Source: a virus
Virus record (IMG/VR): IMGVR_UViG_3300032304_001168
Strand: one strand, 5' to 3'
Length of the DNA: 64,000 nucleotides
Notes under the pieces: generated by a model
Databases searched by the model: none
The model's input: the letters and a program-made list of their open reading frames with translations, nothing else
Told to the model about the DNA's origin: nothing
Translations under genes and position numbers: made by a program
Part shown: piece by piece, positions 30,693 through 40,918 of the stretch
How the letters are laid out: every line of letters begins with the position of its first letter
Numbering within the stretch: position 1 is the first letter of the stretch

Positions 30693-31565
30693 TTATTTTT
30701 TACTTTCTTGTTTTATCACCTTGTGAATAAAACTATTACTAAAACTAGTTTCTTTCTTGATTAGTTCAAAATTATATCCTTTTTCAACTAAATTTTTTAC
30801 AATGTTATGTTTTTCATTTTTTAACAATCTTGTCTGAACTTTATTCCATTTTCTATCTAAAACAGGTAATTCTAAATTTAGAATTTTTTCTTTTATATTC
30901 TTTAATGTTTTTAATTTATTTATGTAAACTAATGAACAATTATCTGAAGTTAAGTTAAATTTTTTATTTTCATTCGTTAAATGATAGTAAAAAAATTCTA
31001 ATATTTCTTTCCAAGACGAATCACATTTAATTCTTAACATTCCTTTATTACATATAGAACCATCACCATCAATAAATCCAATAATTAAACTGAATATACC
31101 ATCATCAGTTAAAAATTTAGGTATTTGTATTGGTATCTTAGTTTTATTTGATTCCCAACCAAAATCATTAGATAACTTACTAATTGTTTTTTTATCGGAT
31201 AAAGTAATTCTTACTATTGAGGGAGTTTCTATTATTTTAAATCCACCCAAATATTGTTGTAATTTTATTATGTGGTCTTTATCATTTTTTGATAAATTAA
31301 TTTGTATATTTTTTTGTTTTGATATATGTCCATCAGCTAACATAAATCCTATCCAATATAACGTAATATTATTATAATAATCTAATAATTTTTTGTATTT
31401 CCAATCATTAACATTTTCATTAAATTCTCTTTTAATATTATTATAGTGAGCTAATTTTTGGATATATGGCCAAGAAAGATTTAATGTTTCCATAATTTCT
31501 TTCTTAGATTTTTTAGAATAATTTGTTTTAAGATATGTTATATTTTTTTCTTTATTACTTTCCAT
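30693..31565 (-). CDS. LAGLIDADG homing endonuclease (free-standing)
   Basis: Two motifs WIGFMLADG and IIGFIDGDG. Confidence 0.85.
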   Translation of the reverse strand: MESNKEKNITYLKTNYSKKSKKEIMETLNLSWPYIQKLAHYNNIKREFNENVNDWKYKKLLDYYNNITLYWIGFMLADGHISKQKNIQINLSKNDKDHIIKLQQYLGGFKIIETPSIVRITLSDKKTISKLSNDFGWESNKTKIPIQIPKFLTDDGIFSLIIGFIDGDGSICNKGMLRIKCDSSWKEILEFFYYHLTNENKKFNLTSDNCSLVYINKLKTLKNIKEKILNLELPVLDRKWNKVQTRLLKNEKHNIVKNLVEKGYNFELIKKETSFSNSFIHKVIKQESKK

Positions 31566-31580
31566 ATAACATAAATATCT

Positions 31581-32006
31581 TTACCTTGTAAAAAGGTGAA
31601 TATCTCTGTTAATTTCTTTTTGAATATCTCGTTCTTTAATCGTATTTCTTTTATCCCTTTCCTTCTTCCCTTGAGCCAAAACTATTTCAACTTTAACTAG
31701 TCCCCTATCATTAACATAAATTTTGGTTGGGACAATTGTTAAACCATTAATAAGTTTTGATTTCAATTTATTAAGCTCAGATTTTTTTAATAACAACTTT
31801 CTTTCCCTTTTTGGTTCCCCATTTGGTAAAGATATTGAAATATTTTTAACAAACAATTCTTGGTCTTTGAAATAACAATATGTGTCAGTTAAATTTGCAT
31901 TTCCATTACGGATGGATTTAACTTCCATTCCTGTCAATACAATACCGGCTTGATAGGTTTCAAGGAATGTATATTCAAATTTGGTTTTTCTATTTTCAAT
32001 ATTCAT
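31581..32006 (-). CDS. smpB: SsrA-binding protein SmpB
   Basis: NRK..FEY..AGIVLTGMEVKSIR..RERKLLLKK..AQGKK..DKR..IKERD; likely start MNIENRK. Confidence 0.92.
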   Translation of the reverse strand: MNIENRKTKFEYTFLETYQAGIVLTGMEVKSIRNGNANLTDTYCYFKDQELFVKNISISLPNGEPKRERKLLLKKSELNKLKSKLINGLTIVPTKIYVNDRGLVKVEIVLAQGKKERDKRNTIKERDIQKEINRDIHLFTR

Positions 32007-32232
32007 CTTCGTCATCATCATCATATTCTAATTCCCAATTTGCTTCATTGTTTTTGTTTGTGATATATTGTTCCAATTCTTTGGCGACTTCCAAGTATTT
32101 TTCTCTTAACTCGTGGAATTTTTCATCCTCTATTTCTTCGAATGAGGAGTAGTGTTTGAAACAATAATGAAACCCTTCTGCGTCCATTCTATAATGAACA
32201 TTATTCCAGTTTTCCGCTTCTTCTGCTTTCAT
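31996..32232 (-). CDS. Hypothetical protein
   Basis: 78 aa; acidic tail. Confidence 0.7.
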   Translation of the reverse strand: MKAEEAENWNNVHYRMDAEGFHYCFKHYSSFEEIEDEKFHELREKYLEVAKELEQYITNKNNEANWELEYDDDDEDEY

Positions 32233-32286: not shown

Positions 32287-33087
32287 TTAAATAGGTAAAT
32301 TTATTTTACTTAATAACTGATTTGAAACGTGTGTATAAATTTCAGTTGTTTTAACATTATTATGACCTGCAATCTTTTGAATTATTCTCAAATCCGTTCC
32401 ATTTTCTAATAAATTGGTGAAACAAGAATGTCTGAGTTGATGAATATGATATTCTTTACCTAAGTATTGCTTTACAATTTTATTACAACTCCCAAAACTA
32501 TATTTTAGATTATTTTGACCATTGAATAGATGGGTGATTGGTTTATATTCTTTATAATATTCTCTTAGAAGTTGTAGGATATTTTGTGATAGTGGAACAA
32601 TCCTATCTTTTCTACCTTTGGCATTTTTGATATGGATAATCATTCTTTTGGAATCAATATCTTCAATTTTGAGATTGACTACTTCTGACACTCTTAGACC
32701 TACTGAAAATGTTAGTGATAGTAGTGTCTTATGTTTTAGGTTTTTGATTTTGGAGAGTTGTTCTTTAATAAAATCACCATCAATAACTTTTGGAAGTTTC
32801 TTTTCTGATTTAGGTCTTTTGAAACTTACTTTATCATATTTTTTATCCAATCCAAATTTATAGAGAAATCTGATTGCGTTAATGATTTGGTTTTGTTGAG
32901 AAACTGAGGTGAAGTTATAGTTATCTAAATAAGATTGAAAATCTTGAGAGGTTAATCTAGTTGGTGATGTTTTATTATTTTCTAAAAACTGATTGATGTA
33001 AAAAAGATAGGACTTGATTGTCCTATCTGAGTAATTTAAGTATTTCAATTTTTGATTACAAATTTCGTAGTAATTTGTCTTTTTCAT
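32287..33087 (-). CDS. Tyrosine recombinase (integron-integrase-like, lacks IntI insertion)
   Basis: YSDRTIKSY SAM-like N-terminus; GLRVSE, KGRKDR, HQLRH, GTDLRIIQKIAGH, TTEIY catalytic set intact. Confidence 0.92.
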   Translation of the reverse strand: MKKTNYYEICNQKLKYLNYSDRTIKSYLFYINQFLENNKTSPTRLTSQDFQSYLDNYNFTSVSQQNQIINAIRFLYKFGLDKKYDKVSFKRPKSEKKLPKVIDGDFIKEQLSKIKNLKHKTLLSLTFSVGLRVSEVVNLKIEDIDSKRMIIHIKNAKGRKDRIVPLSQNILQLLREYYKEYKPITHLFNGQNNLKYSFGSCNKIVKQYLGKEYHIHQLRHSCFTNLLENGTDLRIIQKIAGHNNVKTTEIYTHVSNQLLSKINLPI

Positions 33088-34989: not shown

Positions 34990-35562
34990 TTATTTTCTAC
35001 CACGAGCTCTTTGGATTTTATATTCCCCAAACGCTTCATTTATTGCAAATGGTATTGGTTCATTATTTTCTTGATGATTCCATTTAGGGTATTTATTTTC
35101 TATTTGAAAATATTGTTTCATAAACACCTCTTCTATACCCTTAGCACTTATTGGAACATAAATTATCTCATTATTGGTTAGTCCTGGTACTTTTACTTCA
35201 ATCAAATCCATATAAACCATATAAACTTCAACTTTGTTTCCTTTATCTAATTCTTCTCTGATTAATAAATTAATGAAAAATCTATTGATACCAGGGTCAT
35301 CTTGACCTGACTTGAGATAAAAATTCATACATCCAGAAATACCATTTTTCGCGGAAGATTGACCAATTTTATAAATTATATTATTGATTACAAATAGATA
35401 AACCAAAGCCAAATGTTCGTTTTTAAGATGTTTGGGGAAATTTTCATCATAGATGAGTTTCAAAGCATTTCTATGTAAGACATAAGAATTACCCTTAAAA
35501 TCAGTTTCTCCTAAAACAATCTGACCAACTCTAATACAATTTTTTGCGATTGTTATATTCAT
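34990..35562 (-). CDS. GIY-YIG family nuclease, Hpy188I-like restriction-type
   Basis: LVYLFVINNIIYKIGQS..IEE..YPKWNHQE; TAGATTTG -7 box upstream. Confidence 0.6.
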   Translation of the reverse strand: MNITIAKNCIRVGQIVLGETDFKGNSYVLHRNALKLIYDENFPKHLKNEHLALVYLFVINNIIYKIGQSSAKNGISGCMNFYLKSGQDDPGINRFFINLLIREELDKGNKVEVYMVYMDLIEVKVPGLTNNEIIYVPISAKGIEEVFMKQYFQIENKYPKWNHQENNEPIPFAINEAFGEYKIQRARGRK

Positions 35563-36481: not shown

Positions 36482-38152
36482 TTAACCTTTTATTGTTTTA
36501 TTTATCAAATTTCTAAAATAGTTTTCATTAACATTTTCACTTTGTATCATTTGAATTAATTTAGCCTTAAATGATTCTGCAATTCGTTTAACAAATGCAA
36601 CATATGGTGTTTCATCTTTCTTAACACCAAACGGATTATATTTGGTTATTTTAACAACAATACCATCTTCAACTTTGACAACTCTTCTCATTGTATCAAT
36701 ATAGTATAAACCATTGTCCAAAGGTTGTTTTTTCCCTCGTTTCATTTTAAATAACGAAGCATTAAGTTCTATATTTTCAATAATTAAATCATTAATATCA
36801 ACTTTAATAATCTTATCTTCATCATCAGTTTTTCTAGGGGCTTTTTGTTCTTTTTTTGGTGGTCTTTTAGACCTAACCAAATAATTTAAACCTGAAATAT
36901 TGGTTATACATTTATGTCCACCACTATTTCTAAGTACAATATTCCAACCACTTATAAAAATATTATCTAATATTTCTTTTTCTTCGTCAGATAATTTATC
37001 AAAATGTTGATTCATTATATTTTGTAATTCCTTTTCACTTACATCTTCATCTTGGATTACATAATCATTACCATACAATGCTTTTAAATCTCTATATGTG
37101 AAACCAATTGATTCTTCAGTAAACCCTGGGTCACTTTCCGAAATCCATTTTAAAGATGATAGACTAACTTTAATATTTTTAAGTTCAGTTTCAAATTCAC
37201 TCAATACTTCATCTTTGACTTCACCTAAATTAACACCTTTCAATGCTCTATCTGTCTTAAATGGATTACAAGATACTTGAACCATCCCCATTGGAAATGC
37301 TGTTATTAAGAAATCACCCTCTGGATTATTAATGAATGGGGTATATCTATCATAAGAACCTTTTTTTCCAATATAACCTAATCCATATTGGAAGATAATT
37401 TTATCTTCAACATCAATGTCTTTATCTGTTTTTCTATTTTCAATATAATCAATTTGATTTTGTAATAATTCTTCAGATTTTTCATCAAAACTACCACCAA
37501 TTAATTCTTTTATTTTCAAATAAAGATTTATTGCGGATGGGGTACAGTCCAATACTAATGTTTCCAAAAATTTATCCTTACTTTTGAATGTCAATAACCA
37601 TTTATTAACAATAAACATAAGCATAAATCTATTCTTAGTACTAGAATTTCTAAAATTAAAGTTTAGAATATCTTGTGGTGTAATATTATATCTAATAAAA
37701 TCCGCACTATCAATTGTTGATATTGCTAAAATATCAGTTCCATAAAATAAATCGTTTGGGGATATTACATCAGATACTGTTTTGACATTTGACCTTGAAT
37801 GCGAAAATTGTTTTGATTTGGTGAATTCTGCCCCAGCTTGTGTATCGTGGTGGTCGGTATGAATTAAAAACATAGGTTTACCATGTGCAAAATCTACCAA
37901 TACCGGCATAATTTCACCACTAGCATCTGGTTTCTTAACCGCAAATTCTGATGTTCCATATTGTATAACTTCGGCATCTACTATTTCAATCCCATATCTT
38001 TCCAAATATTTTTTCATGGCTAAAGCCGTAGTAACCCCATCTAGTCAAAGGTCCTGATGAAAGTAGATCTTCGCTTTTTTGTAACGAAGTGCAAGAGAAT
38101 TAATATCTCTTATTCCACTTTCAATCAGGACTATTTTTTGTTTTTTAGTCAT
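36482..38152 (-). CDS. DHH-family phosphoesterase with in-frame TGA at 38045-38047 (recoded or pseudogene)
   Basis: MTKKQKIVLIE..YFHQDL*LDGVTT..LVDF..HTDHH..GGH; the ORF track covers only 36482-38017. Confidence 0.8.
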
Positions 38153-38211
38153 GTTTTATTTTTTTATTAATAAATATCATATAAAAATAAAATAAGGGTC
38201 ATACCTGACTT

Positions 38212-39033
38212 TTATTTGATATTTTTAAAAATATGTGTTATAACATCTATAGTCCACCCATTCCCAAGTAATTTAAACCTTTCGGTGTTTGAAACTCCTC
38301 TAGTATAATTTAATGGCATTGTTTGTAATAGTTCACAATCTTGTGGTGTATATTTGTATATCTGACCTAATTCATTTTTACAATAAGATGAAATCTGTCC
38401 TTTATACATTGATGCTGTTAAACAAGATGCTTTATCACTATATGACTTAACAACATCCTTTCTTGTTCCCCTACCATAAAAAGGTAAATCTAAATAGTTT
38501 GGATATTTGTCCTTAAATTCTGGAGAGATAATATCACAAATATTTAATCCCAAGTCTTTTGGTTGTGTTATATTTGGGATATTTGTCCAATATAACCTTG
38601 GTCTATTTTGAGCTGAAACCAATCTACTATTAATCTTAATCGGTTTGACACCAAGGTGTTCAGTGATTACATCTTGCCATTCTTCTCTCATTACAACATT
38701 CTCCAATAAAAAATATTTTGGTTTAACTTCTTTTAATAGTCTAACATACTCAAAGAATAATTTACTCCTTGGGTCATTGAAATTCAATTGTTTCCCTACC
38801 TTTGAAAATCCTTGGCAAGGCGACCCACCTATGAGAAGGTCTATTGGTGGTAAATCACTTCCTTTAATTTCTGTTATATCACCCAATTGAATTGTGTTGG
38901 GATAATTTTGTTGTGTAACCTTAATTGAACTTTTATCAATCTCGGATGCAAAATACTTATCATATTTTATTCTAATTCTATTTAGGGCAATTTGACCACA
39001 ACTTAACCCATCAAAAAGACTTAATACATTCAT
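38212..39033 (-). CDS. C5 cytosine DNA methyltransferase
   Basis: SLFDG, GSPCQ, ENV, QNRPR, GNGW. Confidence 0.93.
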   Translation of the reverse strand: MNVLSLFDGLSCGQIALNRIRIKYDKYFASEIDKSSIKVTQQNYPNTIQLGDITEIKGSDLPPIDLLIGGSPCQGFSKVGKQLNFNDPRSKLFFEYVRLLKEVKPKYFLLENVVMREEWQDVITEHLGVKPIKINSRLVSAQNRPRLYWTNIPNITQPKDLGLNICDIISPEFKDKYPNYLDLPFYGRGTRKDVVKSYSDKASCLTASMYKGQISSYCKNELGQIYKYTPQDCELLQTMPLNYTRGVSNTERFKLLGNGWTIDVITHIFKNIK

Positions 39034-39851
39034 AATTTAATATTTTTAAAAATATGTGCAATTACATCAACAGTCCAACCATTGCCAATCATTTTGTATC
39101 TTTCTGTGTTACTAACAACAGATGTATACCCTTCTGGTATTGTCTGTAATTTCTCAAATTCAGTTGGGTTTAATAATCTACATAAAGTTTTATCCTCGTT
39201 GAAGAGATATTGATTTGTGTGACAATTCTTGGTGGTTAAACAATTTGATTTCTCATTCTTAACCCAATTAGGATTTTTATTTATTCTTTCTTTTGTTCCC
39301 CATTTATTATAAAAACATTTTGGTATTTCTCTAAACTTGTCATCAGTTAATACATCAGATAGTTTAATCTTCTTATCTTCAGGTTGGGTTATGTTTGGAA
39401 TGTTTGTCCAATATAATCTGTCCCTATTTTGACCAGATACTAGATTACTATTAATTCTTATAGGTTCAACACCCATTTCCTTTGTGATGATGTCTTCCCA
39501 TTCTTTTTTCATCTTTACATTTTCAAGTAAAAAATATTTGGGCTGAACTTCATTTAGGACTCTAACAAATTCCCAAAATAAACCACTCTTTCCATCAAAA
39601 CCTGTTCTGTTACCTGCTGATGAAAAACTTTGACAAGGACTCCCACCAAATAAGATATCTATTTTTGGTAAATCAGAACCTTTGATATTATTAATATTAC
39701 CTAACTGAATCGTGTTAGGATAGTTGTGTTGAGTTACTTTAATTGCGTGAACATCAATCTCAGAAGCATAATAGTTATCGTAACTAATCCCAACTTTATT
39801 TAAAGCGATTTGGCCACAACTTAACCCATCAAACAAACTCAGTACATTCAT
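39030..39851 (-). CDS. C5 cytosine DNA methyltransferase
   Basis: SLFDG, GSPCQ, ENV, QNRDR, GNGW. Confidence 0.93.
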   Translation of the reverse strand: MNVLSLFDGLSCGQIALNKVGISYDNYYASEIDVHAIKVTQHNYPNTIQLGNINNIKGSDLPKIDILFGGSPCQSFSSAGNRTGFDGKSGLFWEFVRVLNEVQPKYFLLENVKMKKEWEDIITKEMGVEPIRINSNLVSGQNRDRLYWTNIPNITQPEDKKIKLSDVLTDDKFREIPKCFYNKWGTKERINKNPNWVKNEKSNCLTTKNCHTNQYLFNEDKTLCRLLNPTEFEKLQTIPEGYTSVVSNTERYKMIGNGWTVDVIAHIFKNIKL

Positions 39852-40918
39852 AATTCTATGTTTTTAAATATATGTGTTATTACATCAACTGTCCATCCAT
39901 TACCTAACATCTTTCTTGCTTGACTATCACTTACAACATTAGTATATCCATCAGGTATTGTTTGTAGTCTTTCCATTTCAATTCGATAAAGTTTTCTGTA
40001 TTTCCAAGTTGGGTCAACAATATAATCCAATGGACTTTCAACGGTAACTAAACAATTTCCTTTGTTATTTTTATTTGGGACATACATCTTAAATTCTTTA
40101 CTCCTTGGAGTTGAATCTCTACCAGTTTCAATTCTTATTTTTCTCCTCATTTCTTTACCCTCCTTAGTTCTAGTTTCATAAAATGAAAATGGTACTTCGT
40201 TTGATAAATCTATATTAACTCTTTTTCCATTATTAGCATATAGTGTTACAATACCATCATCATTAATGGTTATAGGACTACCATAAGATTTAGTTAATGA
40301 ATCTATTTTTTCATCAATAGTCATATTACAGGGGTCATCAACAATGATATCTTTTAAAGTAATTTCTTTGTCTATTGGTTGATTAATATTTGGAATATTA
40401 GTCCAATATAATCTTCTTCTATTTTGGGCCGATACCAAAGTTGAGTTTATTTCAATTGGTTCTAATCCCAATACATTGTTTATTATGGTTTCCCACTTCT
40501 TTAACATTTTAACATTTTCTAATAAAAAATATTTTGGTTTAACTTCTTTTAATAGTCTTACATATTCCCAAAACAAATATGATTGTCCTTGAAAGTTAAA
40601 TCCATTTCTTTTTAAATCCAAATATTGTTCTAATGTTAATATTTCAATATCTTCTTTTGTTGACATCCCTTTCATCTTACCAGCAAATGAAAGATTTTGA
40701 CAGGGTAATCCACCACACATTAATGTAATTGTTGGTAAATCACTCCCATTTATTTGTGTAATATCCCCCAATTGAATCGTGTTAGGATAGTTGTGTTGGG
40801 TTACTTTGATACTATGTTTATCTACCTCAGATGCGTAATAATTATCATATTTAATTCCAGCACGATTCAATGCGATTTGTCCACAACTCATCCCATCAAA
40901 AAGACTCAGTACATTCAT
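39848..40918 (-). CDS. C5 cytosine DNA methyltransferase
   Basis: SLFDG, GLPCQ, ENV, QNRRR, GNGW; longer target-recognition region. Confidence 0.93.
   Translation of the reverse strand: MNVLSLFDGMSCGQIALNRAGIKYDNYYASEVDKHSIKVTQHNYPNTIQLGDITQINGSDLPTITLMCGGLPCQNLSFAGKMKGMSTKEDIEILTLEQYLDLKRNGFNFQGQSYLFWEYVRLLKEVKPKYFLLENVKMLKKWETIINNVLGLEPIEINSTLVSAQNRRRLYWTNIPNINQPIDKEITLKDIIVDDPCNMTIDEKIDSLTKSYGSPITINDDGIVTLYANNGKRVNIDLSNEVPFSFYETRTKEGKEMRRKIRIETGRDSTPRSKEFKMYVPNKNNKGNCLVTVESPLDYIVDPTWKYRKLYRIEMERLQTIPDGYTNVVSDSQARKMLGNGWTVDVITHIFKNIEL

Follow-up and report, generated by a model that had tools for sequence, protein, structure and literature searches.

A putative short translational bypass at an in-frame stop in a phage DHH/DHHA1-type phosphoesterase gene, carried within an exchangeable cassette

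How can an enzyme be made from a gene whose catalytic motif is interrupted by an in-frame stop codon? The question is raised by a phosphoesterase gene on the minus strand of IMG/VR record IMGVR_UViG_3300032304_001168, which was analysed as one stretch of 64,000 nucleotides (nt; the window). The window is phage-like and densely coding, with 28% G+C. We consider it likely that the stop is passed by a minimal programmed translational bypass (a "stop-hop") and that the locus is a small independent analogue of T4 gene 60/mobA.

The phosphoesterase frame opens with the ATG at 38152 and runs through MTKKQKIVLIESGIRDINSLALRYKKAKIYFHQD to CTT (38050-38048), TGA (38047-38045), CTA (38044-38042) and GAT GGG GTT. 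The codons ahead of the site are ATC TAC TTT CAT CAG GAC, which give the peptide context YFHQD. In the open reading frame (ORF) listing, a 35-codon ORF at 38045..38152 (-) ends in the TGA, and the 520 codons after it are open to a stop at 36482. An earlier note on this DNA had read the site as YFHQD-CTT-TGA-CTA-DGVTT, followed by more than 500 open codons with DHH and GGH motifs; both readings agree with the minus-strand sequence, and HTDHHD and NSGGHK are present in the read-through translation. The first in-frame ATG past the TGA lies at 38017 and would yield 511 amino acids (aa). The interruption separates the Leu of motif I from its second Asp, and when the read-through translation was compared with the motif, motif I was restored only if a hop was applied. 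All in-frame stops joining two open stretches across the window were scanned. This was the sole stop with synonymous flanks followed by a long open frame without a start of its own at the junction, and no second case of the kind was found in that scan.

Sequence searches with the enzyme in Pfam, PHROGs, NCBIfam and PDB sequences gave no match. In an alignment of 27 uninterrupted homologues, D36, L37, D38, G39, D87, D100, H101, H102, G409, G410 and H411 were invariant; these residues include the motif I DxD, the motif II D, the motif III DHH and the GGH of DHH/DHHA1 phosphoesterases. An AlphaFold (AF2) model of an uninterrupted homologue 93% identical to the window protein (predicted local distance difference test score, pLDDT, 68.6) was used for structural comparison. 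All 50 Foldseek matches listed for this model were DHH/DHHA1 phosphoesterases (prob 1.0); the best was PggH (7d62, E 5e-5), and the others included DhhP, NrnA, PAP phosphatase, RecJ, GdpP and family II pyrophosphatase. Because the profiles are silent while fold and motifs agree, the enzyme is best regarded as a distant DHH/DHHA1 member, assigned through its modelled fold and its motifs only.

At least 574 relatives of the gene were found in IMG/VR, and the best 80 of these were used for close comparison. The motif was uninterrupted (HQDLDG or HMDLDG) in 76 of the 80; the other four carried Leu-stop-Leu (L002, L005, L007), with one group sharing just 72% protein identity with the window. The uninterrupted form is also encoded by LR745206.1, an uncultured phage of 634 kb (YFHKDLDG), and all 78 uninterrupted loci read H(Q/K/M)DLDG. 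A scan for the pattern YFH(Q/K/M)D-Leu-stop-Leu-DGV recovered 43 further IMG/VR stretches from many metagenomes, and a scan allowing other gap lengths added 13 interrupted contigs. In total, 57 phage contigs were interrupted at exactly this codon. Every one of them has CTN, an immediate stop (TGA, TAG or TAA), then 0, 2, 3 or 5 bases, and CTN directly before GAY-GG, implying hops of +6, +8, +9 and +11 bases. The earlier note had proposed aligning homologous phage genes for a conserved codon-stop-synonymous codon at this site; that arrangement is conserved across the 57 interrupted contigs, an outcome that favours the hop.

With each of the four gap lengths, HQDLDG is restored by re-pairing of peptidyl-tRNA-Leu. 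Homologues lack the skipped bases, and judged against the 78 uninterrupted loci the product is colinear only if these bases are passed over. The start codon and the downstream ORF (435-764 codons) are in different frames in the +8 and +11 forms, and therefore readthrough cannot make the protein there. Codon choice at the site was equally uneven. CTN was used at both Leu codons in 35 of 35 distinct +6 alleles, whereas only 7 of 57 uninterrupted alleles had CTN at the site (Fisher 9e-19) and the remaining 50 had TTA or TTG; in the remainder of these genes, CTN makes up 24% of Leu codons. The third base of the paired codons varies (T, G, A, C), and no synonymous first-base C-to-T change was seen. 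A constant CTN pair is expected if one CUN-reading tRNA has to pair at both codons. A stop flanked by synonymous take-off and landing codons is the arrangement of gene 60-type programmed translational bypassing. The +6 hop from CTT to CTA giving HQDLDG, put forward in the earlier note, is thus supported by the 78 uninterrupted loci, by the CTN/CTN pairs and by the +8/+11 alleles.

The deep lineage L115 (IMGVR_UViG_3300035698_017015) gives an indication of what is conserved at the site. Reading TGA as sense raises its coding density from 0.60 to 0.83, with ORFs of up to 908 aa. Its phosphoesterase gene contains an internal TGA, whereas the hop site has TAA; in a phage with TGA as a sense codon, a true stop has therefore been kept there. 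The interruption has also been kept across saturating synonymous divergence. Sequence comparison shows the interruption to be real, old, selected and mobile, in a gene that can be decoded into the conserved protein only by a short bypass.

We infer a ribosomal mechanism of the following kind. The ribosome would read 35-36 codons up to the take-off codon and would then hold peptidyl-tRNA-Leu on CUU in the P site, with UGA in the A site being decoded slowly. The tRNA would release CUU, the mRNA would advance by 6 bases and the same tRNA would pair again with CUA, after which decoding would restart at GAU. One Leu would thereby be made from nine bases, and the DxD motif HQDLDG of the DHH/DHHA1 phosphoesterase would be restored. 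The predicted hop-junction peptide is ..IYFHQDLDGVTTALAMK..; readthrough would instead give ..HQDL-X-LDG...

Readthrough of the stop, in which a near-cognate or suppressor tRNA reads TGA and the functional product carries the two extra residues, is the alternative closest to the hop in its product. UGA is the leakiest stop in bacteria, and the +6 and +9 forms are in frame. The hop and readthrough products differ by just two residues (2016 review, PMC5009743). However, readthrough of the +8 and +11 alleles of this cassette would run into the wrong frame, all three stops are used, TAA included, and the insertion would change the invariant DxD to DxxxD. Yield would rise if the stop were exchanged for a sense codon, yet a scan that allowed any middle codon turned up no such exchange in the family; its single extra match was an unrelated gene. 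Genes for tRNA-Leu(UAG) and/or tRNA-Leu(AAG) are present in the three near-complete interrupted genomes (257, 318 and 270 kb), in none of which a suppressor tRNA was found. Readthrough also leaves the constant CTN at both codons unexplained, and we regard it as distinctly unlikely. An alternative code, with TGA as Trp or Gly, or an error of sequencing or assembly would remove the stop altogether. The low G+C of the window and the occurrence of a TGA-recoded phage in this family (L115) would suit recoding. In the window itself, however, TGA closes 12 of the 65 long ORFs, many of them in ATGA overlaps and with other stops a few codons further on, and reading TGA as sense lengthens no other long ORF and barely changes coding density; as far as the sequence goes, reassignment (code 4/25) was ruled out there, TGA being an ordinary terminator. 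The concern of the earlier note that the site might be an assembly artefact does not hold, as the same Leu-stop-Leu recurs in dozens of independent assemblies. We give this group of explanations almost no weight. A prfB-type +1 shift was also rejected: the +1 frame of the window reads GAC TAG and meets a stop after one codon, and therefore such a shift cannot make the enzyme.

It is also conceivable that a selfish cassette simply broke the gene, leaving a 35-residue peptide and a dispensable or decaying remainder. The cassette does act as a mobile element, a second premature stop is present in the L005 family (see below), and about nine in ten of the recovered relatives lack the interruption. 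Against this stands the selection acting on the interrupted alleles. The ratio of nonsynonymous to synonymous substitution rates (dN/dS) among them was about 0.33 in the upstream mini-ORF and about 0.15 in the downstream part, and in clades made solely of interrupted alleles the downstream value was 0.05-0.27 at near-saturated synonymous divergence (proportion of synonymous differences, pS, 0.5-0.67). Both halves of the gene are thus under purifying selection. Apart from the L005 family, every complete interrupted allele has an intact ORF of 430-760 codons. Matched CTN codons and a landing codon abutting GAY-GG are kept over four gap lengths, and nuclease immunity alone needs neither. Inactivation is thus unlikely, and the suggestion of an inactivating 6-nt insertion in the earlier note loses most of its force in view of the purifying selection in the all-interrupted clades. 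A split gene, with a 5' peptide and a separate C-terminal protein made by termination-reinitiation or from a new start at the ATG at 38017, has a precedent in the T4 mobA insertion, which splits the topoisomerase gene into two working subunits, and the window does have an in-frame ATG ten codons downstream. However, there is no conserved restart, because several interrupted alleles (L085, L108, L102, L117 and L112) have Ile, Val or Leu in place of that Met. CTN is no start codon, and the ten codons between stop and ATG are conserved as protein. It was correctly remarked in the earlier note that starting at the downstream ATG forfeits the motif: a restart there drops its second Asp and Gly. We hold a split gene to be highly improbable.

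The interruption is carried by a small mobile cassette. It is scattered over a tree built from the 370 downstream residues, with at least nine changes forced by well-supported branches and 13 by parsimony, and some pairs of interrupted and uninterrupted genes are 93-98% identical. The window and L003 share 97-100% identity over 1.5 kb on each side and 60-80% across a core of about 150 bases, which spans from just ahead of the start codon to about 15 bases beyond the landing codon. A like conversion tract was found between L082 and L008. In both pairs the tract is local and has sharp boundaries between near-identical genomes, and the scattered tree pattern is explained by the swapping of this cassette of about 150 bases between otherwise near-identical phages. 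Interrupted alleles carry a synonymous-site signature (GCG, ATC, TAC, CAG, GAC, GAC, GGA) at sites where uninterrupted alleles have GCT/GCA, ATA, TAT, CAA, GAT, GAT and GGT. In L008 (1984-2100), which is uninterrupted, the interrupted-type 5' half of the cassette is kept (MTSKKN..VLVESG) with a plain TTG codon at the site itself; this allele has the appearance of a recombinant from which the gap was lost. By comparison of the alleles, the six bases themselves form the 3' end of the mobile cassette, and an insertion belonging to a homing-endonuclease cassette is a better account of them than the intron scar entertained in the earlier note. An origin by DNA slippage or tandem repetition was considered, as many alleles read CT-TTGAC-TTGAC-GG, and was rejected as a decoding route: the frame is still not restored after removal of one 5-base unit, and the window has no such repeat.

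Upstream of many interrupted alleles lies an ORF of about 300 codons that ends 3-17 bases before the phosphoesterase start codon; one copy is L083:8992-9894. It was found directly upstream in 25 of 57 interrupted and in none of 78 uninterrupted contigs (Fisher 9e-12), and diverged copies are present in the deep lineages L115 and L116. When L119 was compared with L013, the shared sequence reached the ATG, which in the cassette form opens this ORF and not the phosphoesterase; on its 5' side the element is bounded by the original ATG. The ORF contains Cys-rich and NUMOD3-like repeats and a C-terminal H-x-D-H ... N ... N, with H242, D244, H245, N267 and N276 invariant. It had no match in Pfam, NCBIfam or PDB sequences and matched only families of unknown function in PHROGs, and Foldseek with the model of the whole ORF found no match. 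The best VIA-align fold matches of the C-terminal domain were HNH nucleases, though weak ones (Gme nicking endonuclease 4h9d, Z 4.7; phage GVE2 HNH 5h0o, Z 4.0). The ORF is called no more than HNH-like here, because the C-terminal motif and the weak HNH fold matches are set against negative profile searches.

The full cassette in many relatives thus consists of an HNH-like homing endonuclease gene placed on the original start codon, about 35 re-coded codons and the gap. By analogy with T4 mobA/gene 60, we infer that the gap and the synonymous re-coding would make the carrier's gene immune to the endonuclease. Rival phages would be cut by the endonuclease at their uninterrupted motif-coding sequence, and the hop would keep the carrier's own gene usable. 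We think it likely that the window holds a natural, selected stop-hop, as one member of a cassette family with bypasses of 6-11 bases that an HNH-like homing endonuclease has spread through freshwater jumbo phages.

Signals that might stimulate the hop were sought in the RNA. Two predicted upstream hairpins of the window (38092-38112 and 38069-38089) have a joint folding energy of -12.6 kcal/mol (z -3.5), and the nearer one ends 18 bases before the take-off codon, approximately at the mRNA exit point of the ribosome. The median upstream folding energy was -10.9 kcal/mol in interrupted and -6.4 kcal/mol in uninterrupted alleles (Mann-Whitney p = 2e-4, uncorrected for relatedness). A take-off hairpin with the take-off codon and stop in its loop (UACUUU..CAGG-loop-CUUG..GGAGUA) fits most +6 alleles, with 88% of cells pairing. 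In the +11 alleles (L153, L154, L158) a take-off hairpin of 10-12 base pairs (bp) pairs the His-Gln-Asp codons with the gap end, the landing codon and GAU-G; with the stop in its loop, it resembles the gene 60 take-off stem-loop. The bases invariant across +6 alleles are the G before the Asp codon, the CT of both Leu codons and the T of the stop. The invariant G yields a GGA one base 5' of take-off, and one may speculate that it acts as a mini Shine-Dalgarno sequence, as in prfB or gene 60. Of the near-complete genomes, all three interrupted ones and one of the two uninterrupted ones encode a CUN-reading phage tRNA-Leu; these numbers are too small for a judgement on specificity. Among the 24 tRNAs of the hop-bearing 257-kb phage (G001), ARAGORN listed one with a four-base anticodon (actt; L151:3648-3727, minus strand), which is possibly an artefact. 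Expanded anticodons boost hopping in E. coli.

Several observations weigh against a programmed, cassette-borne stop-hop. The window copy has no endonuclease: tblastn found no copy of the HNH-like ORF anywhere in the window, and a methyltransferase lies upstream instead. The window therefore carries an endonuclease-less cassette, which either lost its endonuclease or never gained one. It is also the only +6 allele that lands on CTA. No consensus stimulatory RNA structure was found across the family. The +6 take-off hairpin showed no compensatory changes and nothing was predicted there by RNAalifold, and upstream stems in a fixed register were 62% paired over 29 alleles, with covariation not above slid controls and no alifold consensus. 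Unstimulated stop-hops in E. coli have been described as low-level. In the L005 family (L005, L007, L097, L109 and L123, identical in protein) an extra in-frame TAA (AGG TAA AAT; L005:3226-3228) lies 86 codons past the hop site, at the position of a Ser codon in the window. It is either a young pseudogene mutation or a second recoding site, and the lineage may be dead. Frequent homing could, moreover, keep making "young" interrupted genes whose ORFs reflect past function; the hop-only clades make this account less likely.

For decades, to our knowledge, T4 gene 60 was essentially the sole bacterial example of programmed bypassing. This 50-nt bypass in a MobA HNH element (Huang, 1988; Bonocora, 2011; both as cited in bioRxiv 10.1101/2022.08.31.505936) is the closest system to the present one. 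Its cassette has been described as an endonuclease, a re-coded homologous 5' region and a gap ending at the landing codon (bioRxiv 10.1101/2022.08.31.505936). The present cassette has the same parts, with a gap that ends at or just past the landing codon. The two systems also have in common matched take-off and landing codons with a stop right after take-off, and a gap within the metal-binding motif of a phage enzyme gene. Endonuclease-less copies exist in T4-like phages too, and the patchy distribution in both is attributed to homing and recombination. The differences are considerable. The gap is 50 bases in gene 60 and 3-8 bases here (hop 6-11), and the paired codons are Gly GGA there and Leu CUN here. 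The interrupted gene encodes a topoisomerase there and a DHH phosphoesterase here, which is not split into two subunits. The endonucleases are unrelated in sequence, the present one having no Pfam or PDB sequence match. The present system is predicted from sequence, with no nascent-peptide signal or conserved stem-loop established.

Synthetic stop-hops, in which nine bases are decoded as one amino acid, have been made; no natural hopping over an in-frame stop was known to a 2016 review (PMC5009743), and no later report of one was found in the open-text literature. The E. coli constructs (Weiss, Dunn, Atkins and Gesteland, 1987, as cited in PMC5009743 and bioRxiv 10.1101/2024.12.09.627546) likewise yield a product two residues away from that of readthrough. 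As described in these citing articles, they are engineered, low-level and unstimulated, whereas the present arrangement is natural, conserved and under selection. The terminase of Streptomyces phage Hau3 (10-nt inserts after UUA; PMC10732093) and the byps of Magnusiomyces mitochondria are similar in that short inserts which homologues lack are passed over, with re-pairing after a slow A-site codon. However, the trigger there is a rare or unassigned sense codon and here a stop, host and translation systems differ, and for Hau3 a link to an endonuclease is not known. With prfB, the gene for release factor 2 (RF2), the window shares the identical heptamer CTT TGA C and a GGA just upstream; in contrast to prfB, its protein continues in the zero frame (in relatives, after +8 or +11) and not in +1.

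If the stop-hop is real, short bypasses by ordinary bacterial ribosomes would be efficient enough to sustain an enzyme gene without the elaborate signals of gene 60, and bypass-protected immunity would have been invented more than once by selfish nucleases. The family would offer a graded natural series of hops (+6, +8, +9 and +11) with simple, mutable signals and a clear predicted product, by which the requirements for take-off, sliding and landing become directly testable. It would also supply an evolutionary rationale, as the gap would protect against a homing endonuclease. In annotation, genes of this kind appear as truncated or split, and stops between synonymous codons may pass as readthrough or pseudogenes.

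Table 1. Features of the phosphoesterase locus in the window, with the sites of the longer-gap alleles of relatives
Feature	Position	Strand	Remarks
Whole DHH/DHHA1-type phosphoesterase gene	36482..38152	-	35-36-codon 5' segment, 6-base coding gap, 519 codons and stop
Take-off codon CTT (Leu), last codon read before the stop	38048..38050	-	CTT, CTG or CTC in 57 of 57 interrupted contigs
In-frame stop TGA, in the ribosomal A site at predicted take-off	38045..38047	-	TGA, TAG or TAA in relatives
Landing codon CTA (Leu); decoding would resume at GAT (38041-38039)	38042..38044	-	CTT, CTG or CTA in relatives, never TTA/TTG
Exchangeable cassette (rebuilt 5' gene end and gap), approximate extent	38036..38172	-	60-80% identity to uninterrupted sister L003; flanks 97-100%
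Predicted hairpin, candidate stimulator	38069..38089	-	7 bp, 7-base loop; 3' end 18 bases before the take-off codon
Second predicted hairpin, further upstream	38092..38112	-	7 bp, 7-base loop; folding prediction
C-5 cytosine DNA methyltransferase, upstream neighbour	38212..39033	-	No endonuclease gene directly upstream of this phosphoesterase copy
+8 alleles			Site CTT-TGA-CG-CTA or CTT-TGA-CG-CTG
+9 alleles			Site CTC-TGA-GGG-CTT or CTC-TAA-GGG-CTT
+11 alleles			Site CTT-TGA-GGGAA-CTT or CTT-TGA-CGGGT-CTT

The only other stop in the window with codons for one amino acid on both sides, AGG TAA AGA (31581-31583), was rejected as a hop site, as it simply lies between an SmpB-like gene and a LAGLIDADG endonuclease gene with an ATG of its own. 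The SmpB-like ORF (31581-32024, minus strand) is followed in the same frame by AGG TAA AGA and five codons, and then by the free-standing LAGLIDADG homing-endonuclease-like ORF (30693-31565). It is unusual for SmpB to be encoded by a phage. An ORF of 190 aa (34990-35562, minus strand) had no Pfam match, and its ..VYLFV..YKIGQS.. faintly recalls GIY-YIG nucleases. A tyrosine recombinase of the phage integrase family is encoded at 32287-33087 on the minus strand, in a region that otherwise resembles a large lytic-type phage. Directly upstream of the phosphoesterase gene stand three tandem C-5 cytosine DNA methyltransferase genes (38212-40918, minus strand), the first two of 273 aa each with near-identical N-termini.

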